This document shows, one piece after another, positions 1-54,560 of a stretch of DNA of 64,000 bases; positions within the stretch are counted from its first letter, which is position 1, and each line of letters opens with the position of its first letter. A model generated the notes under the pieces. That model made no database searches, was not told where the DNA came from, and saw only the letters and a program-made list of their open reading frames with translations. The stretch is from an uncultured bacterium (GTDB taxonomy: Bacteria; Armatimonadota; UBA5829). The position numbers and the translations under genes are program-made. Location of the stretch: positions 576-64,575 of the forward strand of contig CAWGNL010000060.1 of assembly GCA_963823885.1 (NCBI GenBank), written 5' to 3'.

Positions 1-2485
1 GTGGGTTTCTTTCCAATCTAACGGCGACAGCGTCGCCGTCACTTGCTCCTCCTAAGAAACTCCCCAGTTTCGGGAACAAGATTCCCGAAACACCGGGGGT
101 GGGTTTCTTTCCAATGTAATGGCGACAGCGTCGCCGTCACTTGCTCCTAAGAAACTCCCCAGTTTCGGGAACAAGATTCCCGAAACACCGGGGGTGGGTT
201 TCTTTCCAATGTAACGGCGGCAACGCCGAGGTCACTTGCTCCTCCTAAGAAACTCCCCAGTTTCGGGAACAAGATTCCCGAAACACCGGGGGTGGGTTTC
301 TTTCCAATGTAATGGCGACAGCGTCGCCGTCACTTGCTCCTCCTAAGAAACTCCCCAGTTTCGGGAACAAGATTCCCGAAACACCGGGGGTGGGTTTCTT
401 TCCAATGTAATGGCGACAGCGTCGCCGTCACTTGCTCCTCCTAAGAAACTCCCCAGTTTCGGGAACAAGATTCCCGAAACACCGGGGGTGGGTTTCTTTC
501 CAATGTAATGGCGACAGCGTCGCCGTCACTTGCTCCTCCTAAGAAACTCCCCAGTTTCGGGAACAAGATTCCCGAAACACCGGGGGTGGGTTTCTTTCCA
601 ATGTAACGGCGGCAACGCCGAGGTCACTTGCTCCTCCTAAGAAACTCCCCAGTTTCGGGAACAAGATTCCCGAAACACCGGGGGTGGGTTTCTTTCCAAT
701 CTAACGGCGACAGCGTCGCCGTCACTTGCTCCTAAGAAACTCCCCAGTTTCGGGAACAAGATTCCCGAAACACCGGGGGTGGGTTTCTTTCCAATGTAAT
801 GGCGACAGCGTCGCCGTCACTTGCTCCTCCTAAGAAACTCCCCAGTTTCGGGAACAAGATTCCCGAAACACCGGGGGTGGGTTTCTTTCCAATGTAACGG
901 CGACAGCGTCGCCGTCACTTGCTCTTCCTAAGAAACTCCCCAGTTTCGGGAACAGGATTCCCGAAACACCGGGGGTGGGTTTCTTTCTAATGTAACCGCG
1001 GCAACGCCGAGGTCACTTGCTCCTAAGAAACTCCCCAGTTTCGGGAACAAGATTCCCGAAACACCGGGGGTGGGTTTCTTTCCAATCTAACGGCGACAAC
1101 GCCGAGGTCACTTGCTCCTCCTAAGAAGCTCCCCAGTTTCGGGAACAAGATTCCCGAAACACCGGGGGTGGGTTTCTTTCCAATGTAATGGCGACAGCGT
1201 CGCCGTCACTTGCTCCTCCTAAGAAACTCCCCAGTTTCGGGAACAAGATTCCCGAAACACCGGGGGTGGGTTTCTTTCCAATCTAACGGCGACAACGCCG
1301 AGGTCACTTGCTCCTCCTAAGAAGCTCCCCAGTTTCGGGAACAAGATTCCCGAAACACCGGGGGTGGGTTTCTTTCCAATGTAATGGCGACAACGCCGAG
1401 GTCACTTGCTCCTAAGAAGCTCCCCAGTTTCGGGAACAGGATTCCCGAAACACCGGGGGTGGGTTTCTTTCCAATGTAATGGCGACAGCGTCGCCGTCAC
1501 TTGCTCCTCCTAAGAAACTCCCCAGTTTCGGGAACAAGATTCCCGAAACACCGGGGGTGGGTTTCTTTCCAATGTAACGGCGGCAACGCCGAGGTCACTT
1601 GCTCCTAAGAAACTCCCCAGTTTCGGGAACAAGATTCCCGAAACACCGGGGGTGGGTTTCTTTCCAATCTAACGGCGACAGCGTCGCCGTCACTTGCTCC
1701 TCCTAAGAAACTCCCCAGTTTCGGGAACAAGATTCCCGAAACACCGGGGGTGGGTTTCTTTCCAATGTAATGGCGACAGCGTCGCCGTCACTTGCTCCTA
1801 AGAAACTCCCCAGTTTCGGGAACAAGATTCCCGAAACACCGGGGGTGGGTTTCTTTCCAATGTAACGGCGGCAACGCCGAGGTCACTTGCTCCTCCTAAG
1901 AAACTCCCCAGTTTCGGGAACAAGATTCCCGAAACACCGGGGGTGGGTTTCTTTCCAATGTAATGGCGACAGCGTCGCCGTCACTTGCTCCTCCTAAGAA
2001 ACTCCCCAGTTTCGGGAACAAGATTCCCGAAACACCGGGGGTGGGTTTCTTTCCAATGTAATGGCGACAGCGTCGCCGTCACTTGCTCCTCCTAAGAAAC
2101 TCCCCAGTTTCGGGAACAAGATTCCCGAAACACCGGGGGTGGGTTTCTTTCCAATGTAATGGCGACAGCGTCGCCGTCACTTGCTCCTCCTAAGAAACTC
2201 CCCAGTTTCGGGAACAAGATTCCCGAAACACCGGGGGTGGGTTTCTTTCCAATGTAACGGCGGCAACGCCGAGGTCACTTGCTCCTCCTAAGAAACTCCC
2301 CAGTTTCGGGAACAAGATTCCCGAAACACCGGGGGTGGGTTTCTTTCCAATCTAACGGCGACAGCGTCGCCGTCACTTGCTCCTAAGAAACTCCCCAGTT
2401 TCGGGAACAAGATTCCCGAAACACCGGGGGTGGGTTTCTTTCCAATGTAATGGCGACAGCGTCGCCGTCACTTGCTCGGAATGAC
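1..2485. repeat. Tandem array of 26 units (95 or 98 bp). Each unit is an extended REP-A hairpin plus a short GC hairpin. The array runs off the window start.
   Basis: Unit starts were read at 1, 99, 194, 292, 390 ... 1652 ... 2335, 2430. The core is GTTTCGGGAAcaagaTTCCCGAAAC (10-bp arms, 5-nt loop), nested in aagaaactcccc / ggggtgggtttctt. The second hairpin is, for example, GGCGACagcGTCGCC. There is no ORF of 60 aa or more in 1-2372. The array ends in cacttgctcggaatgacat. Confidence 0.95.
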
Positions 2486-2590
2486 ATGATTTACGACGGC
2501 TGTGGCAGAACCAGCACCGCGCCTCACTGTGGGATGGTAGTGAACTCCATTCAGCATCCACGGCACGAGCAAATGGATTCTGAAACAAGT

Positions 2591-3769
2591 TCAGAATGAC
2601 GTGGTAGTCATGGAAGAGTGAGCACTTACAATCATGCGCGCGATGTTGGAGCCGGGTTCCAGCCCGCAAACGGACTCAAGCACGGCTTCGATCCCCTGGC
2701 CCCTGAGCATCGAGTGGAGCTTCACGGCGGCTTCGTCCTCGGGGTTATCATAAGCGAGGGCGGCGGCGGTCGCGCGGCATGTGTTCACCGGGTCTATCCC
2801 GTACTCCATCGCCAGCTTCACTGAGCCGATCAGCCTGTCGTGTGGGCCGAGCTTGCGCAGCGGATCGCGTCCAACCCTGGCAACGGTGTCGCCGAGACCT
2901 TTGTTCGAAAAGCGATGCAGCAAATCGTCGATATGGTCCTGGTGCTGCTCCGGGCTGAAGCCATGCTTGGCGATCAACGCCTGCCCGGTCTCGCCGAGCG
3001 CGCCTAGAACTACCTCGAACACTTGCGTATCGGCCACCGCCTGATAGATATACTCGTGACCTCGCCGGTAACCAAGATACGCACATGCCGCGTGCCCCAG
3101 ATTATGTGTAAAAAGCTTGCGCTCGACGTAAGCGTCGAAGTTGTCGCGGGGTTCGAAGCCGACAATCTCCGGCGGCGGCCCCACAAATCCTCGCCGGGCA
3201 ACCGGGAGCCTCTTATACGCTTCCACGTAGACCGAAAGTGGATCGATTCGCCGCTGATCCTTGGTCATAACGGGGACCATACGGCTCACCACCGATTCCA
3301 CAAGGCCGACGTGCGTATCGAAATACTCGGTGTGCTCGGGGGGCAGGTGGTCCAGTATATAGCCCCGCAGAATCCGGGACGCGTCGAGCAGGTTCTCGCA
3401 GATTATGACGTTGAGCGGCTCGGCTACGTGGGCCTCGGCGCGAAGCCGGATACCCCCGGCGATGGCGGGAGCGACATGCCGCAGCGCGTTGACCCCGACC
3501 GCCGTACACACGATCGACGAATCCATAATCTCGCGGGCGACGGCATCGACATTCCTGCCGTCCACCGCCCTGATCTTGTCGATGTGAACGGTAAAGGTCT
3601 CGTCGCCGACAATGTGAATCGGATAGGAGCCGCGGTTATTTATGAGTTTGATGGTTTCTTCCACTACATCCACGAACACCACCTCATACCCGGACTCGTG
3701 GAAGAGTTGGGCAGTGAAGCCGCGTCCAATATTGCCGGCCCCAAATTGCACTGCTTTCAACATACACAC
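2591..3769 (-). CDS. mtlD: Mannitol-1-phosphate 5-dehydrogenase
   Basis: Intact 392-aa ORF. The N-terminus MLKAVQFGAGNIGRGF... is the MtlD Rossmann motif (compare E. coli MKALHFGAGNIGRGF), and the length is typical. The likely start is the ATG at 3763. Confidence 0.9.
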   Translation of the reverse strand: MCMLKAVQFGAGNIGRGFTAQLFHESGYEVVFVDVVEETIKLINNRGSYPIHIVGDETFTVHIDKIRAVDGRNVDAVAREIMDSSIVCTAVGVNALRHVAPAIAGGIRLRAEAHVAEPLNVIICENLLDASRILRGYILDHLPPEHTEYFDTHVGLVESVVSRMVPVMTKDQRRIDPLSVYVEAYKRLPVARRGFVGPPPEIVGFEPRDNFDAYVERKLFTHNLGHAACAYLGYRRGHEYIYQAVADTQVFEVVLGALGETGQALIAKHGFSPEQHQDHIDDLLHRFSNKGLGDTVARVGRDPLRKLGPHDRLIGSVKLAMEYGIDPVNTCRATAAALAYDNPEDEAAVKLHSMLRGQGIEAVLESVCGLEPGSNIARMIVSAHSSMTTTSF

Positions 3770-3791: not shown

Positions 3792-4145
3792 GTTTCGGGA
3801 TTTCCGGAGCGACTACGGCGTTTGTGCCATACTCGAACGGCCGTGCCCGCTCCTCAAATCCCGAAACACCGGCAAAAGAAACTCCCCAGTTTCGGGAACA
3901 AGATTCCCGAAACACCGGGGGGTGGGTTTCTTTCCAATGTAACGGCGACAGCGTCGCCGTCACTTGCTCAGGATGACATAATAGTTGCGCTAGTGCCTGT
4001 TGCGTTAACCCAACTTCCGCGCTACTCCGAACAGAGTTTCTTAGGAGCGTGTAGCGAGGAATCTCAACGCTGCGCCTGGATTCTTGTTCCGGTGCGTGAG
4101 GCTCATCCGAGCTTCGAGATCCCTCACATTCGTTCGGAATGACAG
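3792..4145. repeat. Repeat cluster: REPIN-B (3792-3870), one array-type unit (REP-A plus GC hairpin, 3875-3978), and an inverted gtcattccgaacgaa-type arm (about 4030-4145)
   Basis: Sequence identity to the other family members listed here. It fills the whole mtlD-DeoR intergenic space. Confidence 0.85.
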
Positions 4146-4269: not shown

Positions 4270-5116
4270 TTAACCCGCTATAAGTATCTCTACGCCCTGT
4301 GCTTCGATGTTCGCCCGATCATTCTGGGAAATGCCCGGGTCGGTCACCAGGATATGCACCTCTTCCCAGGCGCCGTAACGCGCGAAGGCCTTCTTACCGA
4401 ACTTCCGGCTCTCGGTCACCAGGACCACCTTATCAGCGATTTTCATGATATCCCTCTGGAAGTTCACGACGTGCATATCGAAGCAATAAATCCCTCCGAC
4501 GCTGTCCGCGCCGTCACAGCCGATGAACAGGGTGTCGACGTGCAGATTATGCAGGGTATCTTCGGTCAGCGGTCCGGTACAGGCTGGGGAAATCGCGTCT
4601 GAGAAACCCTCCCAGTAGAAGCACGGTCACCGGAGAGCCATAGAGCGCCTGCGCGGCGCACAGCGAAGTCGTCGCCACCGTGATATCGGCATTCTGAGGC
4701 AGATGGACCGCAACTTCCAGAGGTGTGGCGCCCGCGTCTATCATCACGGTCTGACCGGGACTGACGAGCCCGGCCGCCAGGCTGCCGATAGCCTCTTTCT
4801 CGGCGGAAATCCTGTAATGCGGAAATGCGCTGTGAAGAAAGCGAAGGCGACCGACCGCCACGGCCCCTCCGTGAGTGCGCGTGACAAGCCCCTGCTTCTC
4901 AAGGTCGGCCAAATCCCGGCGGATGGTCATGTCGGAGACTTCGAAACGGCTTGCCAGATGGCGCACGCCAATATCCTGGCCCTCCACCAGCAACTCAACG
5001 ACTACTCTCTGCCGCTCGTTCAACAGCTTCTCCTGTGTTCGGTTCGCACAACCACTATAACGCACGCGGACCAGCCTGTCAAGCTCGTGCAGCCGGTCTG
5101 AGCACGAATCATGCAT
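4270..5116 (-). CDS. DeoR-family transcriptional regulator (frameshifted)
   Basis: DeoR HTH (VRHLASRFEVSDMTIRRDLADLEKQGLVTRTHGGAV) followed by a sugar-binding-type C-domain. The last 68 aa (4270..4476) are in another frame, so there is a frame change near 4480-4600. The true start is probably downstream of 5116. Confidence 0.75.
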
Positions 5117-17822: not shown

Positions 17823-18294
17823 AGCCGCAACCAAGAAGGCCATCGCCGGAAAATCAATACGGCCTTTCCATAATTCGGAAGGTCGGTGGTTTCTTCTTAC
17901 GTATCTTACAACTGAAATCCGAGGTCACATATCAAAGTTCAGTACAGCTTGTATAGGATTTCAGTTGTAAGGTACTATCGCTTTTCCCCGGACTTCGCTG
18001 GGGAAAAGTGGCCACCTTACGGTGGCAGTTGACCAAGGCAGGCGGTCGGGTTTTTCGCTTTTCGGTTGTTAAGGGATGATTTGGAGGGGGCGGGATTCCA
18101 CCCCCGTCCCTTGAACAACACCTGAGTCGGCTCGGGAGGACTCCCCAGCGTTGCCCTACCCTCCGCCCAGGCAAAGCAAGTATAGCTCATCGGCCATCCC
18201 TTAACAACCATAAAGCGGAAAACCCAAAGGCGGTGCGCCGTCGAATCCGCCTTAGCGACAACAAATTGTTTCTAGGAGGGCGATAAGCGCCTAA
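17823..18294 (+). repeat. LR element copy 1 (about 470-bp structured non-coding repeat; left 15 nt missing)
   Basis: The L module has a 16-bp-arm hairpin CTTACAACTGAAATCC-N35-GGATTTCAGTTGTAAG. The R module has several hairpins and an approximately 29-bp long-range helix. By eye it is near-identical to the copies at 29463, 46587 and 47989. Confidence 0.9.
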
Positions 18295-18299
18295 CGCGG

Positions 18300-19278
18300 C
18301 TAAACCAACACCACGGGCTGGCCCGCACTGATGGACCTGAGCGCGGCTTCCGCTGATACGCACCGCCTCCAGAGCGTCTCTCGCCGTGATCTCGGCTTGC
18401 TTACCCTGTTCCAAACAGTCGATGAAATGTTCCAATTCCAGGTAATACGGGTCCTGGCCGCTGGGGGTCTCCGATATCACGAGGCCAGCGCGATCGGCAT
18501 CCATAGACTTCATCTCGATATTAAGCGGCGCACTCTCTTTGCTGGAATAGCTCAGCACCCCGTTGGTTCCGGCTATCTCCACGCACGTCTCGAAACCGCT
18601 GGGCCTTGCCCAGCTTCCCTCCACGTGAGCTATTGCCCCGCTTTGAAACCTGAGCGTGACCAGCGCGTAATCCGCTGACGGAACCCCCGATTCGACCGCC
18701 CGCGCAAAGACTCTGGTCACTCTTCCCAGGCTCCATCGCAGCCAGTCGAAGTCGTGGACCAACAAGTCCAGCACGACGCCGCCGCTGCGCTTGAAGTCCG
18801 CAAACCACCCCGCCGGCTGGCCCGAGCGGCGGCTGGTGCGCGCGACCATGGTTCTCCCACCGCTCCGCTGGCCACAAGGTCATGAAGCCTTCTGAACTCG
18901 GGACACCACCTCAAGACGTGCGCCACAAAAAGCTGTACCCCGGCCTCCTCGCACACACGCACGGCCTCCTGAGCTTGGCCAACCGTGCGAGCCATGGGCT
19001 TTTCCACGCACACGTGCTTGCCCGCGGCAGCGGCGGCATTTACGGAGTCGATATGGTTCGGGGTGGGCGTGCAGATATCGAGCATATCGACCTCGGAGTA
19101 TTTCAAGAGACTCCGCCAGGCTCGAAAACGGCTGAGCCCCGTACCGGGCGGCAAGCTCCTCAGTAGTCTCCATTATCGAATCACACACCGCAACAAGCTC
19201 GGCTTTCGGCATCCGAGCATAGGCCTCGCAATGGACTTTCCCAATCCCGCCAAGGCCAACGACAGCAACTTTCTGCAT
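18300..19278 (-). CDS. Gfo/Idh/MocA family oxidoreductase, second paralog (3 or more frameshifts)
   Basis: MQKVAVVGLGGIGKVH, HVCVEKPMA, and the C-domain ...DYALVTLRFQSGAIAHVEGSW. The pieces are 18880..19284, 18717..19154 and 18187..18849. The true tail ...AEAALRSISAGQPVVLV ends at TAG 18300-18302 after a shift near 18355. Confidence 0.75.
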
Positions 19279-19303
19279 CAGCACCCCCAGGTTAGAAATT
19301 AGA

Positions 19304-20412
19304 AATTAGAATCCGGACCCCTAACCCGCACAGGCCCCTGTTCGGGCGGATTTGCAATCCGGCCCGTAATGAGCAACCCGGGCATCTCTGATGCCCTACG
19401 GTTCGGCCCGGCAAATACGCACCGCTTCCCGCCACATACCCACAAGTCATGTCATTCCGAACGAACGTGAGGAATCTCCACCTATCGGTTGAATCTCACC
19501 TGCCGGAGCATACATTCCTGCGCAACGTTGAGATTCCTCACATTCGTTCCTAAGAAACTCCCCAGTTTCGGGAACAAGATTCCCGAAACACCGGGGGTGA
19601 AGAAACTCCCCAATTAGAATCCGGACCCCTAACCCGCACAGGCCCCTGTTCCGGCGGATTTGCAATCCGGCCCGTAATGAGCAACCCGGGCATCTCTGAT
19701 GCCCTACGGTTCGGCCCGGCAAATACGTACCGCTTCCCGCCACATACCCCACAAGTCATGTCATTCCGAACGAACGTGAGGAATCTCCACCTATCGGTTG
19801 AATCTCACCTGCCGGAGCATACATTCCTGCGCAACGTTGAGATTCCTCACATTCGTTCCTAAGAAACTCCCCAGTTTCGGGAACAAGATTCCCGAAACAC
19901 CGGGGGTGAAGAAACTCCCCAATTAGAATCCGGACCCCTAACCCGCACAGGCCCCTGTTCGGGCGGATTTGCAATCCGGCCCGTAATGAGCAGCCCGGGC
20001 ATCTCTGATGCCCTACGGTTCGGCCCGGCAAATACGCACCGCTTCCCGCCACATACCCCACAAGTCATGTCATTCCGAACGAACGTGAGGAATCTCCACC
20101 TATCGGTTGAATCTCGCCTGCCGGAGCATACATTCCTGCGCAACGTTGAGATTCCTCACATTCGTTCCTAAGAAACTCCCCAGTTTCGGGAACAAGATTC
20201 CCGAAACACCGGGGGTGAGTTTCTTTCCAATGTGACTGCGACAGTGTCGCTGTCAATTGCTCGGAATGACAGCCACGCGTTGGGCACTCATGATGCCTGA
20301 GCACTTGCCCAGCATAACGTTGAGATTCCTCACATTCGTTCCTAAGAAACTCCCCAGTTTCGGGAACAAGATTCCCGAAACACCGGGGGTGAGTTTCTTT
20401 CCAATGTCAACC
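19304..20412. repeat. Composite tandem repeat: three units of about 309 bp (19304, 19612, 19921) plus related degenerate copies up to about 20412
   Basis: Each unit holds small hairpins (cggatttgcaatccg, gggcatctctgatgccc), a long hairpin gaacgaacgtgaggaatctc-N52-gagattcctcacattcgttc, and a REP-A hairpin. The identical 101-aa pseudo-ORFs at 19447 and 19756 confirm the 309-bp period. Confidence 0.95.
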
Positions 20413-20419
20413 GTGAACC

Positions 20420-21773
20420 CTACACAAATATCAGCACCGGCGACTCCAGGATCGCCTTCAACCCCGCGAGGAATTCGGCGGCCGGCGCGCCGTCCATTAC
20501 TCTGTGATCGAACGATAGGCACAGGTTCATCATGGACCGAATCCTGACCTCGCCATCGATTGCCACCGGAGCATCGGCGATCTCGCACACACCCAGGATC
20601 GCGCTCTGGCCCGGAACGATGATCGGATTAAAGCTGACCACCCCGTACACGCCGAGGTTTGTAATGGTGAACGTGCCATCCTTGAAGTCCGAGGCCGCCG
20701 CCGTCCCCCCGCGCGCGCTGGCGACGAGGTCCTTGATTTCTCTGGATATCCGCGCCAGGCTCTTCGTTTGCGCATCCCTAATCACGGGCGCCACAAGCCC
20801 TTCATCGATCGCTGTGGCGATCCCAAGATTAACGGTCTCGTGAATAACTATCCGATCGCCGTCCAGCGAGGAGTTGACTATCGGCTTGTCCTGAATTGCC
20901 GTCGCGACTGCCTTCGCGATAATATCGGTAAATGAAATCCGTACCCCATAGCGGCTCTCGACCGGTTGCAGGATGCGTTTTCGTAGAGCAGCGCACTCTG
21001 TCATGTCGACCTGGGCGACCAGGGTGACGTGCGCCGCGGTCCGCGCACTGGATGCCACATTCCGCGCCACGGCCTTGCGCACGCCGGGAAATGGAATAGT
21101 GGTTCCGATCGCCGTCGCGCCCGGGCTGCGGGGCTTGCGCGGCTCGCATGATATCGGTGCTGGTGATCTTGCCGGCGACGCCGCTGCCGCTTACGGCGCC
21201 CGTCTCCACCCCCATTTCCGCCGCCATCCTTCCGGCGAGCGGAGTCATCCTGGGAGCCGAGGCCGGATGATCCAGCACATCTCGCTCCAGGATGCGGCCA
21301 CTGGGCCCCGTGCCCTTGCCCGCAAGCTCGGAAATGTCGATGCCGCGCTCCCTGGCAACGCGCCTGGCGGCCGGCGAAGCAAAGATTCTCTCTGCAACCG
21401 GCGGCGCGGTCCCCATGTCGCCTGCATGCGTCGGGACAGCCGGACCAATCGGCGCGCTCGGTTCAGCCGCCTTCTCCGGGGCAGGGGCGGGGACGGGCGC
21501 GGCTGCCTTACCCAGCGCGTCTTCCGCGGACTCGCCGGCGGCTCCTATTAAAGCTATGGGCTCCTTGACCGGCACCGTCTGCTCCGGCCCAGCGTAAATC
21601 TTCAGCAAGACGCCGTCGCTGGGCGCCTCCACTTCCATGTTGACCTTGTCCGTCATCACCTCGAGCAAGGGTTCCCCTGCTTTGATCGGGTCACCCTCGT
21701 TCTTGAACCACCTGATTATCGTTCCCTCTTCCATGGTCTGCCCCAGCAGGGGCATCGCCATCTTCGTCGCCAT
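20420..21773 (-). CDS. Dihydrolipoamide acyltransferase (E2) of a 2-oxoacid dehydrogenase complex (frameshift near 21090)
   Basis: Lipoyl domain (EVMTDKVNMEVEAP), E3/E1-binding domain (ASPAARRVARERGIDISELAGKGTGPSGRI), and catalytic domain with DHRVMDG. Confidence 0.85.
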
Positions 21774-29294: not shown

Positions 29295-29361
29295 GCCGGT
29301 GTATCGGGAATCTTGTTCCCGATACGCACTTAGTTTCGGGAACAAGATTCCCGAAACACCC
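29295..29361 (+). repeat. REPIN-A' (inverted pair GTATCGGGAATCTTGTTCCCGATAC + GTTTCGGGAACAAGATTCCCGAAAC)
   Basis: Direct reading. The same 67-bp unit occurs at 31176-31242, 51299-51366 and other sites. Confidence 0.9.
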
Positions 29362-29462
29362 GTTAACTAAGCACTAGTTGTCAACAATGCGGGACGGTCG
29401 TCATCCGGGTGACCGATCCCCTCCCAATCCGCTGACCCTACAAACCCTACAAACCCTATCAA

Positions 29463-29938
29463 CCCTAAGGCGGCATAGCCGCAACCAAGAAGACCATCGC
29501 CGGAAAATCAATACGGCCTTTCCGTAATTCGGAAGGTCGGTGGTAGTATCTTACAACTGAAATCCGGGGTGACGTATCGGAGTTCGGTACAGCTTCTATC
29601 GGATTTCAGTTGTGAGATACTACGCTTTTCCCCAGACTTCGCTGGGGAAAAGTGGCCACCTTACGGTGGCAGTTGACCAAGGCAGGCGGTCGGGTTTTTC
29701 GCTTTTCGGTTGTTAAGGGATGATTTGGAGGGGGCGGAGATTTCCACCCCCATCCCTTGAACAACACCTGAGTCGGCTCGGGAGAGCTCCCCAGCGTTGC
29801 CCTACCCTCCGCCCAGGCAAAGCAAGTATAGCTCATCCGCCATCCCTTAACAACCATAAAGCGGAAAACCCAAAGGCGGTGCGCCGTCGAATCCGCCTTA
29901 GCGACAACAAATTGTTTCTAGGGAGGCGCTAAGCGCCT
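29463..29938 (+). repeat. LR element copy 3 (full length)
   Basis: L plus R modules. The right end ...ggaggcgctaagcgcCTA overlaps the TAG stop (29937-29939) of padR. Confidence 0.9.
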
Positions 29939-31125: not shown

Positions 31126-31521
31126 TATCTTACAACTGAAATCCGAGGTGACGTATCAAAATTCAGGTACAGCTTGCCGGTGTATCGGGAATCTTGTTCC
31201 CGATACGCACTTAGTTTCGGGAACAAGATTCCCGAAACACCCGTTAACTAAGCACTAGTTGTCAACAATGCGGGACGGTCGTCATCCGGGTGACCGATCC
31301 CCTCCCAATCCGCTGACCCTACAAACCCTACAAACCCTACAAACCCTATCAACCCTAAGGCGGCATAGCCGCAACCAAGAAGACCATCGCCGGAAAATCA
31401 ATACGGCCTTTCCGCGATTCGGAAGGTCGGTGGTTTCTTCTTACGTATCTTACAACTGAAATCCGAGGTGACATGTCAAAGTTCAGTACAGCTTGTATAG
31501 GATTTCAGTTGTAAGATACTA
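31126..31521 (+). repeat. Nested repeat: half of an L hairpin (31126-31175), then REPIN-A' (31176-31242), a 110-bp spacer with ccctacaaa x3, and a complete L module (31353-31521)
   Basis: The left arm plus loop 5' part (tatcttacaactgaaatccgaggtgac.t.tcaaa.ttcag.tacagctt) occurs twice, at 31126 and 31446. The segment 31176-31500 parallels 29295-29600. Confidence 0.85.
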
Positions 31522-35182: not shown

Positions 35183-36300
35183 CAGGTGTTTCGGGAATCT
35201 TGTTCCCGAAACTAAGTGCGTATCGGGAACAAGATTCCCGATACACCGGCAAGAATACTATCAGCCATTTATGCAAGTAGGCACTAGATCCCCTATCGAC
35301 ACGTTGGTGAGGGCTTCGGGCCGCAGCTGAACTCTTGGGCGATTTGCAGGCGGCAATCGGATGGACCGGCCGTAAGCGATACGGCGTGCTTGCGCGAGAC
35401 GACAATACGCGGTGCAGGTGTTTCGGGAATCTTGTTCCCGAAACTAAGTGCGTATCGGGAACAAGATTCCCGATACACCGGCAAGCCACGACACTGATTG
35501 CGTGCGCAGCCGCGTGCTGCGTGGCGATGTGCGCCAGCAGCACAGGGCGGGCCGATTGCAGGTGTTTCGGGAATCTTGTTCCCGAAACTAAGTGCGTATC
35601 GGGAACAAGATTCCCGATACACCGGCAAGCCACGACACTGATTGCGTGCGCAGCCGCGTGCTGCGTGGCGATGTGCGCCAGCAGCACAGGGCGGGCCGAT
35701 TGCAGGTGTTTCGGGAATCTTGTTCCCGAAACTAAGTGCGTATCGGGAACAAGATTCCCGATACACCGGCAAGAATACTATCAGCCATTTATGCAAGTAG
35801 GCACTAGATCCCCTATCGACACGTTGGTGAGGGCTTCGGGCCGCAGGCTGAACTCTTGGGCGATTTGCAGGCGGCAATCGGATAGACCCGCCGTAAGCGA
35901 TACGGCGTGCTTGCGCGAGACGACAATACGCGGTGCAGGTGTTTCGGGAATCTTGTTCCCGAAACTAAGTGCGTATCGGGAACAAGATTCCCGATACACC
36001 GGCAAGCCACGACACTGATTGCGTGCGCAGCCGCGTGCTGCGTGGCGATGTGCGCCAGCAGCACAGGGCGGGCCGATTGCAGGTGTTTCGGGAATCTTGT
36101 TCCCGAAACTAAGTGCGTATCGGGAACAAGATTCCCGATACACCGGCAAGAATACTATCAGCCATTTATGCAAGTAGGCACTAGATCCCCTATCGACACG
36201 TTGGTGAGGGCTTCGGGCCGCAGCCGAACTCTTGGGCGATTTGCAGGCGGCAATCGGATGGACCGGCCGTAAGCGATACGGCGTGCTTGCGCGAATAGGC
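35183..36300. repeat. REPIN array: six REPIN-A' copies separated by two recurring spacers (A about 165 bp, B about 77 bp) in the order R-A-R-B-R-B-R-A-R-B-R-A
   Basis: REPINs start near 35183, 35413, 35556, 35700, 35935 and 36078. Spacers repeat almost exactly. All ORFs called here translate the repeats. Confidence 0.9.
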
Positions 36301-42948: not shown

Positions 42949-44078
42949 CTAATCCTCCACTCCGGCCGCGACCTCGATCAGGGCCCGAGCGTATTCGGCG
43001 GACTTCACGAGTTCGTCCACGGCGATGCTCTCGGTGGGACTATGGGGATGCTCATAGCCGACACCGATTATCACCGACGGCACTCCGCCGAGGTTAAAGA
43101 CATTGGCGTCGCTGCCGCCGCCTCCATCCACAAGTTGAGGTTCGATTCCGACATTCCGGCAGGCCGCCGCCGCCACCTTGACGACCTCGTCGCTCTCGGT
43201 CCAGCAAAACGCGCTGTATTCCCGACAGGACTTTACCTCTGCCCTCGCGCCGATCTTCGCTGCTTCCTCCTCGAAAAGCGCCTTCATGTGAGCGACCTGA
43301 GCCAGGAGTTTTTCCTCGCTGCGACTGCGGGCCTCGGCCCTGATCGTGACCGTCTCGGGGATGATATTTCGGGCCTTTCCGCCCTGGATGACCCCAATGT
43401 TGGCGGTCGTTTCCTCGTCCACGCGGCCCAGGTTCATCCTGGAAATCGCCCTCGACGCCGCTACAATCGCGCTGACACCCTCCTCGGGCGCAATTCCCGC
43501 ATGCGCGGCCTTGCCGGTGATCTCGACGGTAATGTTCTCGTGAGATGGCGCGCTGACGATAATTCCGGCGGTGGGGACTCCGCTGTCAAAAACGTATCCC
43601 AGTCTCGCCCCTCATTCCGGAAAGGTCCAGCGACTTCGCTCCCAACAACCCCGTCTCCTCGCTCACGTCGAGCAGTATCCTGATATCGCCGTACGAGACC
43701 CCGCTCTCCAGGATAGACTCGACTCCCTCGATTACCGCCGCGATACCGGCCTTGTCATCCGCGCCGAGGATCGTCCTCCCATCAGACCTTATCACCCCCT
43801 CGTCCACAACCACGTTCAGACCGTCAGTGGGTTCCACCGTATCCATATGGCAGCAGAAGAATATCTTCCTGGCATTCGCGGCGGTCCCTTTCCTGAAGGC
43901 AATTACATTGCCCGCATTACCGCCGATTTGGGTTCCCGCATCGTCTTCCTCGACCTCGAAACCCAGAGAGCAGAGCTTTGCCGCGACGTAGTCCGCCACA
44001 CCCCGCTCGCACTTGGAGGGAGAGTTGATCCCAACCAGGATCGAGAAAAAGCCGAATAACGCGATCCTTATCAGCCAT
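42949..44078 (-). CDS. M20/M25/M40-family metallopeptidase (peptidase T-like; 2 or more frameshifts)
   Basis: CCHMDTV and ILGADDKAGIAAV metal-ligand motifs, plus C-terminal GGGSDANVF. The ATG at 44078 gives MADKDRVIRLFLDLVGINSPS once one extra base at about 44030 is removed. Confidence 0.8.
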
Positions 44079-45270
44079 GATTTACCTCTAACGATTCATC
44101 CCCTGGGTGGCGATTTCCGAATCGCCACCCCACCCCCCGTTGTTTCGGGAAACCCCTTTCCCGAAACGCACTCCGCAACCCACCGCCGTACAAACACCCT
44201 CGTTTCGGGATTTCCGGAGCGACTATAACGTTCGCTCTATGCTCGGACGAAAGTGCTCGCTCCTCAAATCCCGAAACACCGGCGTTGAATAACGCGATCC
44301 TTATCAGCCATTGATTTACCTCTAAGATTCATCCCCTGGGTGGCGATTTCCGAATCGCCACCCCACCCCCCGTTGTTTCGGGAAACCCCTTTCCCGAAAC
44401 GCACTCCGCAACCCACCGCCGTACAAACACCCTCGTTTCGGGATTTCCGGAGCGACTATAACGTTCGCTCTATGCTCGGACGAAAGTGCTCGCTCCTCAA
44501 ATCCCGAAACACCGCACCAGATCGAGAAAAAGCCGAATAACGCGATCCTTATCAGCCATGATTTACCTCTAACGATTCATCCCCTGGGTGGCGATTTCCG
44601 AATCGCCACCCCACCCCCCGTTGTTTCGGGAAACCCCTTTCCCGAAACGCACTGCGCAACCCACCGCCGTACAAACACCCTCGTTTCGGGATTTCCGGAG
44701 CGACTATAACGTTCGCTCTATGCTCGGACGAAAGTGCTCGCTCCTCAAATCCCGAAACACCGGCGTTGAATAACGCGATCCTTATCAGCCATGATTTACC
44801 TCTAAGATTCATCCCCTGGGTGGCGATTTCCGAATCGCCACCCCACCCCCCGTTGTTTCGGGAAACCCCTTTCCCGAAACGCACTGCGCAACCCACCGCC
44901 GTACAAACACCCTCGTTTCGGGATTTCCGGAGCGACTATAACGTTCGCTCTATGCTCGGACGAAAGTGCTCGCTCCTCAAATCCCGAAACACCGCCGTTG
45001 AATAACGCGATCCTTATCAGCCATTGATTTACCTCTAACGATTCATCCCCTGGGTGGCGATTTCCGAATCGCCACCCCACCCCCCGTTGTTTCGGGAAAC
45101 CCCTTTCCCGAAACGCACTGCGCAACCCACCGCCGTACAAACACCCTCGTTTCGGGATTTCCGGAGCGACTATAACGTTCGCTCTATGCTCGGACGAAAG
45201 TGCTCGCTCCTCAAATCCCGAAACACCGGCGTTGAATAACGCGATCCTTATCAGCCATGATTTACCTCGT
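44055..45270. repeat. Tandem array, five units of about 233 bp plus a partial sixth. Each unit holds three different REP hairpins plus a copy of the SD and first 8 codons of the M20 peptidase gene.
   Basis: Unit starts are at 44055, 44288, 44535 (with an extended gene fragment from 44516), 44768, 45001 and 45234. The hairpins are GGGTGGCGAtttccgaaTCGCCACCC, GTTTCGGGAAAccccTTTCCCGAAAC and a REPIN-B. Confidence 0.95.
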
Positions 45271-49514: not shown

Positions 49515-49590
49515 TGGTGGAGGCTAGCGGGCTCGAACCGCTGACCTATTGCGTGCAAAGCAATCGCTCTCCCAACTGAGCTAAGCCCCC
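49515..49590 (-). tRNA. tRNA-Ala (anticodon TGC), CCA encoded
   Basis: The reverse complement GGGGGCTTAGCTCAGTTGGGAGAGCGATTGCTTTGCACGCAATAGGTCAGCGGTTCGAGCCCGCTAGCCTCCACCA folds as a cloverleaf. The anticodon loop is TTTGCAC. Confidence 0.95.
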
Positions 49591-49597
49591 GTTTTAT

Positions 49598-49674
<77 letters not shown>

Positions 49675-49781: not shown

Positions 49782-49988
49782 ATGTCATTCCGAACGAATG
49801 TGAGGAATCTCAACCTATCGGATGAGTCTCACCGATCGTAACAAGGATATAACCGCAAGGTCGAGATTCCTCGCTACCCGCTCCTAAGAAACTCCCCCGT
49901 TTCGGGAACAAGATTCCCGAAACACCGGGGGTGGGTTTCTTTCCAATGTAACGGCGACAGCGTCGCCGTCACTTGCTCGGAATGACAT
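49782..49988 (+). mobile_element. 207-bp MITE-like element with terminal inverted repeats (ATGTCATTCCGAACGAA ... TTGCTCGGAATGACAT)
   Basis: It contains, in order, the long hairpin gaatgtgaggaatctc...gagattcctc, cctaagaaactcccc plus a REP-A hairpin, and the GC hairpin plus cacttgctcggaatgac. It therefore holds one complete unit of the 1-2485 array between TIRs. Confidence 0.8.
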
Positions 49989-50128: not shown

Positions 50129-50971
50129 TCAGTCATCCGATCGGTTTTGGGAGCCGTCTTCCCGCGGAAGCGACCACAGAATCGCATAGCGAATACATAC
50201 CGATGCCCCCGTGAGCGCGCTCAAGATCAGGCCATGAATGCCTTCGCGGCAGCCACCCTGCGCGATGTATTTCTTGAGGAAGGTCAGGCCGGGAGTGATG
50301 AGAACATCCGAAACGCGAAACCTCCTGCCCTCCTTGAGCCTCTGTCGCGCCGCGGCCTGGGAGTAGAACACCATTTTCCGCAGATAATCGTCGATCGTGG
50401 GGTTGGTGTAGTGCAGCATATGATTCTTCAGCTTGCCCGTTGGCCCGTCAACAACCATGGTCTCGTGGACAAGCTGTTCGGGGTAATGCGCCTTCTCGCG
50501 CCTTACAAGACGAAGCTGGTAATCAGGATACCAGCCGCAGTGCCGGATGGCCCTGCCAAGAAAGTAACTGAGCCTGGGTATGTAATAGGCATCGAAGTTG
50601 GGCCGCTCGATTATGCTCCGGATCTCCGCTGCAAGCTCACCCGTCACGACCTCATCCGCATCGATTGCAAGCACCCACTCCTGGGTGGCAAGCCCGACCG
50701 CGGCGGATTTCTGGTCCGAATACCCCCTGAACTCTCGCTTAGAGACTTTGTCCGTAAACCGCCGGGCGATCTCGACGGTGCGATCGGTCGACAGCGAGTC
50801 GAGGACCACTATCTCGTTGCAGAACTCCAGCGCCCCGAGGCACCGCTCGATGTTGCTCTCCTCATTGTATGTTATAACCACCGCCGAGAGTCCCAAGAAA
50901 TCTATCCTCCGCTGAAGGCAAGAGATCACTCTTGATGAGTACTTGTCATGCTCAACTTGATTCACTACCAT
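50129..50971 (-). CDS. Family 2 glycosyltransferase
   Basis: LSAVVITYNEESNIERCL, VVLDSLSTDRT and AIDADE (DxD). The start may be internal to the 280-aa ORF. Confidence 0.8.
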   Translation of the reverse strand: MVVNQVEHDKYSSRVISCLQRRIDFLGLSAVVITYNEESNIERCLGALEFCNEIVVLDSLSTDRTVEIARRFTDKVSKREFRGYSDQKSAAVGLATQEWVLAIDADEVVTGELAAEIRSIIERPNFDAYYIPRLSYFLGRAIRHCGWYPDYQLRLVRREKAHYPEQLVHETMVVDGPTGKLKNHMLHYTNPTIDDYLRKMVFYSQAAARQRLKEGRRFRVSDVLITPGLTFLKKYIAQGGCREGIHGLILSALTGASVCIRYAILWSLPREDGSQNRSDD

Positions 50972-51112
50972 CCCATAACTGGGGGAAATGGCCTGTTTTC
51001 TGGGTATTTCACGCTCAGTAGCGTGTGGTTTTGCAAGTACCCACTTTCGGTTTTCTGGGCGTTACCATTCGCAAGTGCGCAGCCGCGCGGACATGGCACA
51101 AACGCGGCGGCT

Positions 51113-51845
51113 ATGTCATTCCGAACGAACGTGAGGAATCTCGACCTATCGGTTGACTCTCACATACCGAAGGATGATACAGGCGCAACGTTGAGATTCC
51201 TCACATTCGTTCCTAAGAAACTCTCTTCGGAGGAGCGCGGAAGCTGCTTAATGCAGAGGGCACTAGTGTCTACTTGCATAAATAGCTAATAGTATTCTTG
51301 CCGGTGTATCGGGAATCTTGTTCCCGATACGCACTTAGTTTCGGGAACAAGATTCCCGAAACACCCGTTACAGCATTCTATCAATCAATTATGCAACTAA
51401 GCACTAGCACAACGATTACGTCATCCTGAGCAAGTGACCTCGGCGTTGCCGGTGTATCGGGAATCTTGTTCCCGATACGCACTTAGTTTCGGGAACAAGA
51501 TTCCCGAAACACCGGGGGTGGGTTTCTGCCGGTGTATCGGGAATCTTGTTCCCGATACGCACTTAGTTTCGGGAACAAGATTCCCGAAACACCGGGGGTG
51601 GGTTTCTTTCCAATGTAACCGCGGCAACGCCGCGGTCACTTGCTCCTAAGAAACTCCCCAGTTTCGGGAACAAGATTCCCGAAACACCGGGGGTGGGTTT
51701 CTTTCCAATGTAACCGCGGCAACGCCGAGGTCACTTGCTCCTAAGAAACTCCCCAGTTTCGGGAACAAGATTCCCGAAACACCGGGGGTGGGTTTCTTTC
51801 CAATGTAACGGCGACAGCGTCGCCGTCACTTGCTCGGAATGACAT
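51113..51845. repeat. Nest of repeats: a 207-bp-type element interrupted by three REPIN-A' copies (51299, 51448, 51528) and extended by two extra array-type units
   Basis: The left TIR atgtcattccgaacgaacg is at 51113 and the right TIR cacttgctcggaatgacat ends at 51845. The 60 bp beyond it (gatttacgacggctgtggcagaaccagcaccgcgcctcactgtgggatggtagtgaac) also follows the array at 2486-2545. Confidence 0.85.
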
Positions 51846-52290
51846 GATTTACGACGGCTGTGGCAGAACCAGCACCGCGCCTCACTGTGGGATGGTAGTG
51901 AACTTGATTCACCATCTCCTTCGCAGGTACCAGATCGTGAATCAAGTTCAGGCCACCACCGCTGACCCAAGCGGGAGCGTCGTCTAAACACCGGAACCCT
52001 GCCCATAATGGCGGTCCGGCGAGCCGAGGCGGCGGCGGGCAAGTCAGCGGTGTACCTCGGGCCGACCTGGGCTACCGGAGTCTCAAGCCACCGGCTCTCA
52101 AATGAAGCGACTGTGGCAGTCGATGCCGACTCCGTACGATTTTAGTGTGTAAGCTTCTTCCGTCTCGGTATGGAGGCCGGAGAACAAATCTTCTGAAGGT
52201 GGTTTTCCCGACATGACGCTATCGTCGCCCCCTAATGCGCAGCCTGAACTCGGGCTCTCTAGGAGCCAGTGATTTTACGGCGCTAGAGAG

Positions 52291-54255: not shown

Positions 54256-54318
54256 ACTAGATTATACACGCGCCCCCGCAGGCTGGCAACGAGTACAACC
54301 GATCGATGCGGCGCAGAA

Positions 54319-54489
54319 GGAGACCAGGACGAATTTGCCGGTGTATCGGCAATCATGCTCTCGATACGTAGCAGTTTCGGGAACAAGATTCCCGAAACAC
54401 CCAAGGAGGCCAGGACGAATTTGCCGGTGTATCGGGAATCATGCTCTCGATACGTAGCAGTTTCGGGAACAAGATTCCCGAAACACCCA
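54319..54489. repeat. Two tandem 85-bp units containing a degenerate REPIN-A'
   Basis: aggag(a/g)ccaggacgaatttgccggtgtatcgg.aatcatgctctcgatacgtagcagtttcgggaacaagattcccgaaacaccca occurs twice. Confidence 0.9.
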
Positions 54490-54560
54490 ACCCAACACCC
54501 AAATTCCAAATGTTGAATTTAAGGGAGCCCCTGTCCGATCGCCGCATCCCTTCCCCCAAT

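Follow-up and report, generated by a model that had tools for sequence, protein, structure and literature searches.

The 64,000-nt stretch of an uncultured Armatimonadota genome analysed here (the window) opens on a tandem array of at least 25 complete units, which we consider, with a probability of about 0.7, to be a minisatellite internal to a MITE-like element, probably founded by a duplication across a microhomology and then enlarged by slippage and unequal recombination. Base 1 of the window already lies within a unit, so the sizes given for the array (25 units, 2.5 kb) are lower bounds. Coordinates of the array and of related features are collected in Table 1.

Tandem Repeats Finder (TRF) reports bases 1-2477 as a single array (period 98, 25.5 copies, 93% matches, score 4324), and cutting at GTGGGTTTCTTTC delimits 26 units. 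Both analyses bear out the two-hairpin units of 95 or 98 bp described in the earlier note, and its count of 26 head-to-tail units resolves into 25 complete ones (98 bp in 18, and 95 bp in 7, namely units 2, 8, 11, 15, 17, 19 and 25) and an incomplete 26th, which ends at 2477 before the sequence runs into ..CTCGGAATGACAT. The two lengths differ, as that note had proposed, by a CTC at one site, TTGCTC(CTC)CTAAG; the remaining variable columns are five short-hairpin positions, column 18 (G/C), column 22 (C/T) and four that carry rare changes. The units follow one another head to tail without spacers, at a length within the ~10-100 bp of minisatellites. Besides the form listed in Table 1, the short hairpin occurs as CGGCG-GCAA-CGCCG and as a chimeric CGGCG-ACAA-CGCCG, and in units 12, 14 and 15 it is chimeric, with the left half of one form joined to the right half of another.

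Ten full-length unit types can be distinguished, in the order ABCDDDCEDFGHDHIDJ ABCDDDCE(K). Units 1-9 return 1651 bp further on as units 18-26, a higher-order period of 17 units, and bases 1-826 and 1652-2477 are identical throughout; the recurrence seen at first reading is borne out, and it agrees with the at least partial growth by duplication of a multi-unit block that had been deduced from it. The array is non-coding, again as first described, since neither 95 nor 98 is a multiple of 3 and the longest ORFs within it, which overlap and start with TTG, span 40-41 aa. A coding repeat was ruled out by the same unit lengths and the 41-aa maximum. The 25-nt hairpin matches 57 times in the window and the 21-nt unit head 33 times, against 0.00 expected in shuffled sequence. 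Two array units are predicted to fold at -50 kcal/mol as single-stranded DNA (z = -7.4), and predicted folding is strong on both strands (z about -7), which agrees with the suggestion that such an array would be a strong hairpin former.

Table 1. Positions in the window of the tandem array, its component parts and related features.
Feature	Position	Strand	Basis
Tandem array of 25 complete units (18 of them 98 bp long, 7 of them 95 bp) and the start of a 26th	1..2477	+	TRF, unit splitting
Duplicated multi-unit block, first copy (units 1-9)	1..826	+	identical to 1652-2477
Duplicated multi-unit block, second copy (units 18-26)	1652..2477	+	offset 1651 bp = 17 units
Short GC hairpin, example, CGGCGAC-AGC-GTCGCCG	22..38	+	unit alignment
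Long hairpin, example; outer MITE stem AAGAAACTCCCC / GGGG..GGGTTTCTT; REP core inside at 67-91	54..109	+	folding, pattern matches
Cut last unit leading into MITE right terminal inverted repeat (GCTCGGAATGACAT, 2474-2487)	2430..2487	+	consensus match
Right flank common to main and sister arrays (~72 bp, matching to 51916)	2488..2558	+	2301-2558 aligns with 51659-51916 at 95.7%
Mannitol-1-phosphate 5-dehydrogenase gene; stop codon 104 bp from array end	2591..3769	-	ORF and domain scan
Solo MITE right half: one unit and right inverted repeat	3868..3979	+	alignment, inverted-repeat scan
Solo MITE right half, diverged, at end of a 309-bp array	20166..20272	+	alignment
Full-length single-copy MITE (~205 bp), right half = one array unit	49782..49988	+	alignment, inverted-repeat scan
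Sister mini-array, 2.9 units of 95 bp, same junction, within a composite MITE bounded by inverted repeats at 51113-51126 (left) and 51832-51845 (right)	51565..51835	+	TRF, alignment

The number of units could in principle be a product of the assembly: the real locus would then hold few units, as the array at 51565-51835 does, and a repeat loop unrolled at the contig end would have created the 17-unit periodicity. The array stands at the very start of the window, and the contig (77,223 bp) extends no more than 13 kb beyond the window's length, so that the array may plausibly sit at a contig end, the place where a copy number deserves least trust. An assembler that crossed a repeat loop twice could also give 826 duplicated bases without one difference, and the array junction occurs in no other assembly that we searched. 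A simple loop, however, would not yield ten unit types in a non-trivial order with unique units 10-17; homopolymer runs are identical across all units; and the same contig crosses, on both sides, interior arrays of 0.9-1.2 kb whose units of 233-309 bp are 95-100% identical. Several genes of the window are split by frameshifts, which, taken with the crossed interior arrays, suggests a long-read assembly able to span a 2.5-kb array, and since a short-read graph could not count three identical 98-bp units in a row, the assembly probably drew on spanning reads. We consider over-expansion by the assembler unlikely.

Alignment within the window shows the array unit to correspond, by sequence, to the right ~95 bp of a MITE-like element of ~205 bp. 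This parent element is small, non-coding and multicopy, as is expected of a MITE, and carries terminal inverted repeats ATGTCATTCCGA...; its right half consists of the long hairpin, with a REP at the apex, and the short GC hairpin. In the full-length copy at 49782-49988, ATGTCATTCCGARC stands at both ends with 0 mismatches; it matches 13 times across the window, where 0.8 matches would be expected. The flanking sequence, ..A/TGTCATTCC...GGAATGACA/T.. (here and below, the slash marks a boundary), shows no clear target-site duplication, and no cognate transposase was recognised. The end of the array aligns with the copies at 49880-49988, 3876-3982 and 20166-20271 at 93-98% identity, and at 2474-2487, on the minus strand, it agrees without a mismatch with the consensus of the inverted repeat, ATGTCATTCCGAGC, so that the right terminal inverted repeat of the ~205-bp family is indeed where the earlier note had placed it. 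A related, REP-free MITE of 147 bp lies at positions 3494-3640 of a locus (L015) from another MAG; no match to the MITE was found in the plasmids and phages searched.

Comparison with the single-copy element suggests how the tandem arrangement could have begun. The parental sequences in the copy at 49782-49988 are CCGCTC/CTAAGAAAC and CACTTGCTC/GGAATGAC, and the array junction reads CACTTGCTC/CTAAGAAAC, a microhomology of 2-4 nt relative to that element. One tandem duplication would have joined the right end of the element (..CACTTGCTC) to an internal site (..GCTC/CTAAGAAAC) across these 2-4 nt, giving the 95-bp unit, and a 3-nt CTC slip may then have produced the 98-bp form. The shorter form is taken to be the older because the sister array contains 95-bp units only. 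The right flank, identical in main and sister arrays up to 2558 and 51916, indicates that both derive from a single locus; this locus would have come to exist in two copies, together with about 72 bp of right flank, one remaining at 3 units while the other grew. The unit numbers at the two paralogous loci are 3 and 25, a difference that lends indirect support to a variable copy number. Expansion and homogenisation may have proceeded by replication slippage, which hairpins on single-stranded DNA would favour, and through misaligned units that recombined unequally or underwent gene conversion; the latest step would be the duplication at the 17-unit offset that left 826 identical bases. The chimeric short hairpins of units 12, 14 and 15 and this exact duplicate speak for recombination within the array. 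We expect the left end of the array, beyond the window, to be the MITE left half, ATGTCATTCCGAAC...CTAAGAAAC; because that end lies outside the window, the founding junction is visible only via the sister array and the single-copy elements.

Five further tandem arrays lie in the window (19304-20218, 35413-35773, 44054-45268, 51447-51607 and 54317-54490), all with REP-type hairpins, and these at least five other arrays show that amplification of such DNA is a general tendency of this genome. In the collections searched, no independent copy of the array turned up: the junction pattern GTCACTTGCTCCT(N0-3)AAGAARCTCCCCAGTTTCGGG had 0 matches in genome contigs and 0 in the metagenome contigs searched, a pattern of two direct REPs 60-90 nt apart had one metagenome match, which is not an array, and TRF over 34 loci of relatives (about 250 kb) found no large array; locus L036 has only a REP array of 279 bp. 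To the first reading, these results add the derivation of the unit from a MITE right half over a microhomology, the 3-unit sister array and the five or more other arrays.

The core of the long hairpin is, on comparative grounds, a true REP, the palindrome that pairs with a family of RAYT transposases among relatives in this lineage. It reads GTTTCGGGAA-CAAGA-TTCCCGAAAC, with a 10-bp stem and a 5-nt loop, an imperfect palindrome within the 20-40 nt typical of REPs, and REP-type hairpins number 39 outside the array (about 0.63 per kb), with 37 of the 38 located copies intergenic against a rough gene list, as befits a high-copy extragenic repeat. Eleven inverted doublets of the family, GGTGTATCGGGAATCTTGTTCCCGATAC-7 nt-GTTTCGGGAACAAGATTCCCGAAACACC, lie near 29.3, 31.2, 35.2-36.1 and 51.3-51.6 kb, an arrangement able to form the long hairpin of a REPIN; they include a compensated stem variant, GTATC..GATAC. 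The array units hold single REPs, all direct, and not doublets. In a related MAG (locus L001, 2281-2814), a gene for a 177-aa protein passes the NCBIfam model REP_Tyr_transpos (85.5 bits, cutoff 80), the best PDB match of the protein is E. coli TnpArep (4ER8), and the gene is flanked by a 25-mer identical to that of the window, in inverted orientation; the 'REP-type' label first given to these hairpins was therefore apt. This gene was recognised by ORF inspection: a RAYT motif regular expression run over the window and the fetched loci had no match, and was too strict, as it missed this real RAYT. RAYT genes with flanking REPs also occur at L036 and L037, the one at L036, a 64%-identical RAYT, being flanked by a direct REP array of 5.8 x 48 bp. 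The conserved REP head in the window and its relatives is GGTG (..CACC on the other strand), and not the GTAG or CGTC tetranucleotide that the two large REP superfamilies carry at one end (PMC3733652).

Such a pairing invites a reading in which the enzyme itself built the array: a RAYT of the lineage (an HUH/Y1 nuclease) would cut beside the REP, and strand transfer or rolling-circle-like copying would yield head-to-tail multimers, the array being both product and store of RAYT substrates. The match between the REP core and the RAYT family of the relatives would fit this, as would the direct REP arrays beside RAYT genes there (L036), the presence of REP-type hairpins in every tandem array of the window, and the second mechanism, possibly with roles of its own, that Bertels and Rainey proposed for ordered REPIN clusters (PMC3116915). 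The REP, however, is separated from the unit junction by about 14 nt on its 5' side and about 51 nt on its 3' side; the junction falls on ordinary microhomology and shows CTC-slip variation of the kind that slippage predicts; and the junction-to-REP distances in the window's other arrays are unrelated to these. Moreover, no RAYT-like ORF was found among the 41 ORFs of the window scanned with Pfam, and the units carry single REPs, not the inverted doublets that are thought to be mobile. We therefore hold enzymatic multiplication to be improbable, and continue to favour a MITE-internal minisatellite grown by slippage and unequal recombination.

The stop codon of the mannitol-1-phosphate 5-dehydrogenase gene lies 104 bp from the array end, which places the array downstream of the gene's 3' end, on the gene's strand. 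The array might be a selected cis-acting element, a platform of hairpins or inverted repeats for protein binding, whether as a topological or replication barrier, a centromere-like site such as sopC of the F plasmid, or a multiple bidirectional terminator or mRNA stabiliser that serves the flanking genes. Read on either strand, every unit shows a GC-rich hairpin with a T-rich run after it, a consensus scan gives 75 terminator-like sites against 6.6 expected, and hairpin potential is kept, with compensatory changes, in all unit variants and in the diverged MITE relative. For termination, though, one or two units would be enough, and the module is the same as in the dispersed solo copies, with REPs at about 0.6 per kb, so that the motif is not specific to one chromosomal site. 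The dehydrogenase is the sole member of its 90% cluster, its best relative being 74% identical, and the nearest homologues (74% and 70% identical) stand in non-syntenic contexts without such arrays; the units are also too alike to reveal selection. A selected role at this site thus seems very doubtful. Retention of the hairpins in every unit and in the diverged relative at L015 is nevertheless compatible with selection on structure.

Regular direct repeats, a palindromic core ending in GTTTC...GAAAC and strong predicted RNA folding could also point to RNA genes in series or to a locus of CRISPR type, but here whole 95/98-bp units recur with no unique spacers between them, no Cas domains were found in the 41 ORFs scanned, and promoter-like sites are absent from the array in a consensus scan, which leaves that reading scarcely credible. 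At gathering score, Rfam returned two tRNAs only for the window, and for bases 1-600 at E <= 1 only a chance match to rox1 (20 bits, against 58). A CRISPR or RNA gene array was ruled out on the absent spacers and the absent Rfam match.

Set beside described systems, the array is an outsized member of an already known class of bacterial repeat clusters, its closest counterparts being the tandem REPIN clusters of Pseudomonas fluorescens and MITE-internal minisatellites. BOX elements of Streptococcus pneumoniae (boxA-boxB(n)-boxC) are likewise modular, MITE-like, hairpin-forming and intergenic, with one internal module variable in tandem copy number, but boxB is about 45 bp long, reaches about 8 copies and has no link to REPs or RAYTs. 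Enterobacterial BIMEs, which reach about a dozen REPs, share with the array their nature as extragenic REP clusters, conserved linker motifs and a frequent position at gene 3' ends. BIME REPs, however, alternate in orientation (PMC2817692), whereas all 25 array REPs are direct and on the + strand, which sets the array apart from BIMEs.

In P. fluorescens SBW25, tandem REPIN clusters go up to 4 REPINs, with a length slightly above 700 bp (PMC3116915, Bertels and Rainey 2011), so that the array is larger than the REP clusters in the literature. The SBW25 clusters resemble it in their head-to-tail, near-identical units of REP and flanking sequence, their extragenic location, their tie to a RAYT family and their absence from some REP-bearing genomes. 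They differ in holding an inverted REP doublet per unit, where here one REP is nested in a MITE half, and in their extent, 4 REPINs against an array that counts 25 or more units over 2.5 kb or more, has a higher-order period of 17 units and belongs to another phylum. The BrickBuilt MITE of Porphyromonas gingivalis (Klein et al. 2015, PMC4596501), which has leader and tail segments and is bounded by inverted repeats, also houses a spacerless tandem repeat and is intergenic, but its 23-nt unit is not REP-based and the repeat is present in all element copies, whereas here amplification affects two loci only. In eukaryotes, as with the MITE-derived satellite DNA DTC84 of the clam Donax trunculus (PMC3879986), an internal MITE module is amplified into tandem arrays, leading from mobile element to satellite; the differences are the eukaryotic genomes, other transposases and arrays that can become genome-wide satellites. 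A literature search on Armatimonadota REPs, or on bacterial satellites with higher-order repeats, returned nothing specific.

No dedicated function is indicated, and the array is most likely a by-product rather than a new system; by itself it opens no new mechanism and settles no open question. The effects to be expected are those of any hairpin-rich minisatellite: its copy number would be unstable, replication or transcription might stall at it, and it would place a terminator-like structure behind the 3' end of the mannitol-1-phosphate dehydrogenase gene. There is a small chance that this array and the smaller REP arrays are made or maintained by RAYT, through HUH-mediated head-to-tail multiplication of single-stranded DNA, or that the host keeps them as structural elements; the left part would then extend into a satellite of many kilobases, and the array would be a true bacterial satellite.

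What the locus does offer is an origin whose steps can be read in sequence, from a REP in a MITE hairpin through a microhomology duplication and a 3-unit stage to one of 25 units. Together with its relatives, it documents that Armatimonadota have a REP-RAYT system, with a palindrome conserved among several species-level MAGs. The array reaches 25 or more units with a higher-order period and is several times larger than the ordered REPIN clusters known from Pseudomonas, which illustrates the extent to which a bacterial chromosome can amplify REP- or MITE-derived DNA. Since arrays of this kind break short-read assemblies and show up solely in metagenomes sequenced with long reads, they are probably more frequent among uncultured bacteria than is currently estimated.

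Tandem Repeats Finder treats 1-2477 as one array with a period of 98, 25.5 copies and 93% matches (score 4324). Cut at the unit head, the sequence falls into 25 complete units, of which 18 are 98 bp long and 7 are 95 bp, and a 26th that departs from the repeat at 2477 and then runs on as ..CTCGGAATGACAT. This agrees with the earlier note, which described head-to-tail units of two hairpins whose lengths differ by one CTC; we find that CTC at one site only. The remaining variation lies mostly in the short hairpin, as the note had claimed, with a few single columns besides, and unit typing separates ten full-length types in the order ABCDDDCEDFGHDHIDJ-ABCDDDCE. The proposed 17-unit higher-order period (1651 bp) is exact, because bases 1-826 are identical to 1652-2477. 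The short hairpins of units 12, 14 and 15 are chimeric, with the left half from one form and the right half from another, and show that units have exchanged sequence. The longest ORF in the array is 41 aa, consistent with the reported absence of coding capacity. There are 57 occurrences of the hairpin 25-mer in the window and 0 in shuffles. Folded as ssDNA, two units reach -50.2 kcal/mol, and as RNA of either strand about -90 kcal/mol (z about -7 in both cases).

The array is real in the sequence; its copy number is that of the assembly, and the window starts within it. The perfection of the 826-bp duplicate and the possible position of the array at a contig end leave room for an assembly artefact, against which stand the uniqueness of the middle units, homopolymers that are uniform across units, further near-identical arrays, as long as 1.2 kb, that the same contig spans, and several split genes, which suggest an indel-prone long-read assembly. 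These split or truncated genes (20420-21773, 18187-19284 and 4547-5116) include an E2 acyltransferase split between two overlapping frames (the shift falls near 21090-21130, within a CCCGGGC-rich stretch), a GFO/IDH/MocA oxidoreductase broken into two ORFs, and a DeoR regulator lacking half of its C-terminal domain; they are either long-read assembly indel errors or real pseudogenes.

The array unit comes from a MITE-like element, of which it is the right half. One unit matches the right ~95 bp of the complete MITE copy at 98% identity, solo right halves occur twice more (see table), and the last unit closes with the MITE right inverted repeat (2474-2487, 0 mismatches), as the note had recognised. 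In the single-copy element (slash marking the breakpoint) the internal site reads CCGCTC/CTAAGAAAC and the right end CACTTGCTC/GGAATGAC, while the array junction reads CACTTGCTC/CTAAGAAAC; the founding event therefore joined the internal site and the right end across GCTC (TC in the other subfamily), and the 98-bp form is this junction plus one CTC. A pair of minus-strand tRNA genes (49518-49590 and 49601-49674) is found ~108 bp from the complete copy.

A sister array at 51565-51835 (2.9 units of 95 bp) has the same junction and shares with the large array the right inverted repeat and 72 bp of flank past the repeat (2301-2558 against 51659-51916, 95.7% identity over the alignment). From the common junction, right inverted repeat and flank, both arrays therefore come from one origin: the 95-bp unit is older than the 98-bp unit, and the sister copy remained small while the other copy grew. 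The sister array is part of a composite MITE in which the left half is followed by unrelated DNA, three REP doublets, two of them inside the 80-bp repeat, an inverted right-end copy (51421-51451) and the 3-unit mini-array; its elements seem to have been fused by REP-REP recombination. A 15-nt exact inverted match, TTCACTACCATCCCA and TGGGATGGTAGTGAA (50964-50978 and 51893-51907), encloses the composite and the shared flank, which also lies 3' of the large array (2488-2558), and the composite may be nested in another element with inverted repeats at its ends.

Coordinates of the principal features in the window and in loci from related MAGs
Feature	Location	Description
Complete MITE copy, ~205 bp	49782-49988	ends are inverted repeats ATGTCATTCCGAAC and GCTCGGAATGACAT
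Solo MITE right half	3868-3979	
Solo MITE right half	20166-20272	
Composite MITE	51112-51845	left inverted repeat and left half 51112-51222, intact up to CTAAGAAACTC
Mannitol-1-phosphate 5-dehydrogenase gene	2591-3769	minus strand
Tandem array, 309 bp x 3	19304-20218	
Tandem array, 144 bp x 2.5	35413-35773	perfect
Tandem array, 233 bp x 5.2	44054-45268	
Tandem array, 80 bp x 2	51447-51607	
Tandem array, 86 bp x 2	54317-54490	
Direct REP array, 5.8 x 48 bp	L036 9677-9955	upstream of RAYT homologue
Direct REP array, 2.2 x 42 bp	L036 10537-10628	downstream of RAYT homologue
Related MITE, 147 bp	L015 3494-3640	same inverted repeats and two-hairpin right half, without REP

The long hairpin of the unit contains a true REP, with the RAYT link seen in relatives. 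Beyond the array, its core GTTTCGGGAA-CAAGA-TTCCCGAAAC recurs in the window in 39 further REP-type copies, or about 0.63 per kb, intergenic in 37 of the 38 located against a rough gene list; many are arranged as inverted doublets carrying a stem variant, GTATC..GATAC, with compensating changes on both arms. A search of species-representative genomes with the 19-nt core matched mainly Armatimonadota MAGs. In one related MAG (L001, 2194-2856) the identical 25-nt REP stands on both sides of a 177-aa ORF in inverted orientation, which upholds the note's view of the hairpin as REP-type. This ORF scores 85.5 bits against the NCBIfam equivalog REP_Tyr_transpos (‘REP-associated tyrosine transposase’; cutoff 80 bits), also matches Pfam Y1_Tnp, and has E. 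coli TnpArep (PDB 4ER8) as its top match among solved structures; its ~120 homologues include proteins that JGI names RayT and proteins that NCBI assigns to Armatimonadota. A second locus (L036) encodes a homologue 64% identical to the L001 RAYT between direct REP arrays, and small head-to-tail REP arrays therefore adjoin RAYT genes in this lineage; in a third (L037), a 53%-identical homologue lies between REPs with the same foot and a different apex. The REP head here is GGTG, without the GTAG or CGTC tag that marks the two large REP superfamilies (PMC3733652), and no publication that we found describes a REP-RAYT system in Armatimonadota. In a short-read MAG (L003, 5606-5776) a 100-N scaffold gap immediately follows a REP doublet, which fits with REP repeats breaking short-read assemblies and hiding arrays.

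The REP-free MITE of locus L015 has the layout of the window element (inverted repeat, hairpin, hairpin, short GC hairpin, inverted repeat). Its hairpin AAGGAACTCCCC-TGATT-TGGGGAGTTCCT is the counterpart of the outer stem of the window long hairpin, from which it differs by a compensated A-T to G-C change, and its short hairpin is a different palindrome. Judging from this one relative, the MITE hairpin is probably the older part and, in the window lineage, has a REP in its apical loop.

Multiplication of the array by a RAYT is attractive because direct REP arrays flank the RAYT genes of relatives, but the unit junction lies on ordinary microhomology, away from the REP, and the junctions of the other arrays in the window are unrelated. 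Most likely, the array arose by slippage and recombination as a MITE-internal, REP-bearing minisatellite: microhomology-mediated tandem duplication would have started the repeat, which would then have grown and been homogenised through slippage where single strands form hairpins, along with unequal recombination or gene conversion, and the 17-unit duplication would have been the final step. Unit identity, the junction, the sister array, the chimeric units, the exact block duplicate and the hairpin potential are the directly observed basis for this origin, by which the feature is well explained.

The DNA comes from an uncultured member of the Armatimonadota. The array lies 104 bp beyond the stop codon of the neighbouring dehydrogenase gene, on its downstream side. 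The best relatives of the encoded protein are at most 74% identical and carry the name Armatimonadota, and the protein itself occurs on one contig only (77,223 bp) as the sole member of its 90% cluster; we found no sister strain in the collections searched, and no synteny around the nearest homologues. A simple consensus scan marks every unit as terminator-like on either strand. Transcripts may thus end at single copies, and 25 copies are more than termination needs. We saw no evidence of a dedicated function, and there is little or no support for the array as a cis-element under selection, as a set of RNA genes or as a CRISPR-like locus.

Pneumococcal BOX elements are among the closest described things to the array. 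So are the BrickBuilt MITE, with its internal 23-nt minisatellite (PMC4596501), eukaryotic MITE-derived satellites (PMC3879986), and the ordered tandem REPIN clusters, 16 in number, of P. fluorescens SBW25, the largest of which holds 4 REPINs in just over 700 bp; their authors saw in them a second way for clusters to form and possible roles in function (PMC3116915). BIMEs also count among them, with REPs that alternate in orientation (PMC2817692), a feature absent from the array. Bacterial repeat clusters of this kind are known, and the array is an unusually large one; we found none described for Armatimonadota.

At least five further tandem arrays, every one with REP-type hairpins, occur in the window (see table). 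The 309-bp unit joins ~150 bp of other sequence to the MITE left half and the REP, and at its junction the long-hairpin right arm (GGGTTTCTT) is replaced by a left-arm copy (AAGAAACTCCCC), which looks like a strand-switch at the palindrome. In the 233-bp unit there are different hairpins that share the REP foot (GTTTCGGGAAACCCCTTTCCCGAAAC, and GTTTCGGGATTT..55 nt..AAATCCCGAAACACC), and on its minus strand CAT, preceded by GATTTACCTC, looks like the start of a gene with its ribosome-binding site; the array may therefore multiply the 5' end of a gene. At 35188-36141, a ~1.9-kb intergenic region is dense with six inverted REP doublets, and the 144-bp array forms part of it. At 29301-29467 and again at 31182-31357 a REP doublet is followed after ~100 bp by a microsatellite of 9-bp units (ACCCTACAA, 3.7 and 4.7 copies), suggesting a further repeated composite element. 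Tandem arrays make up roughly 9-10% of the window; this genome thus amplifies REP-bearing DNA as a general trait.
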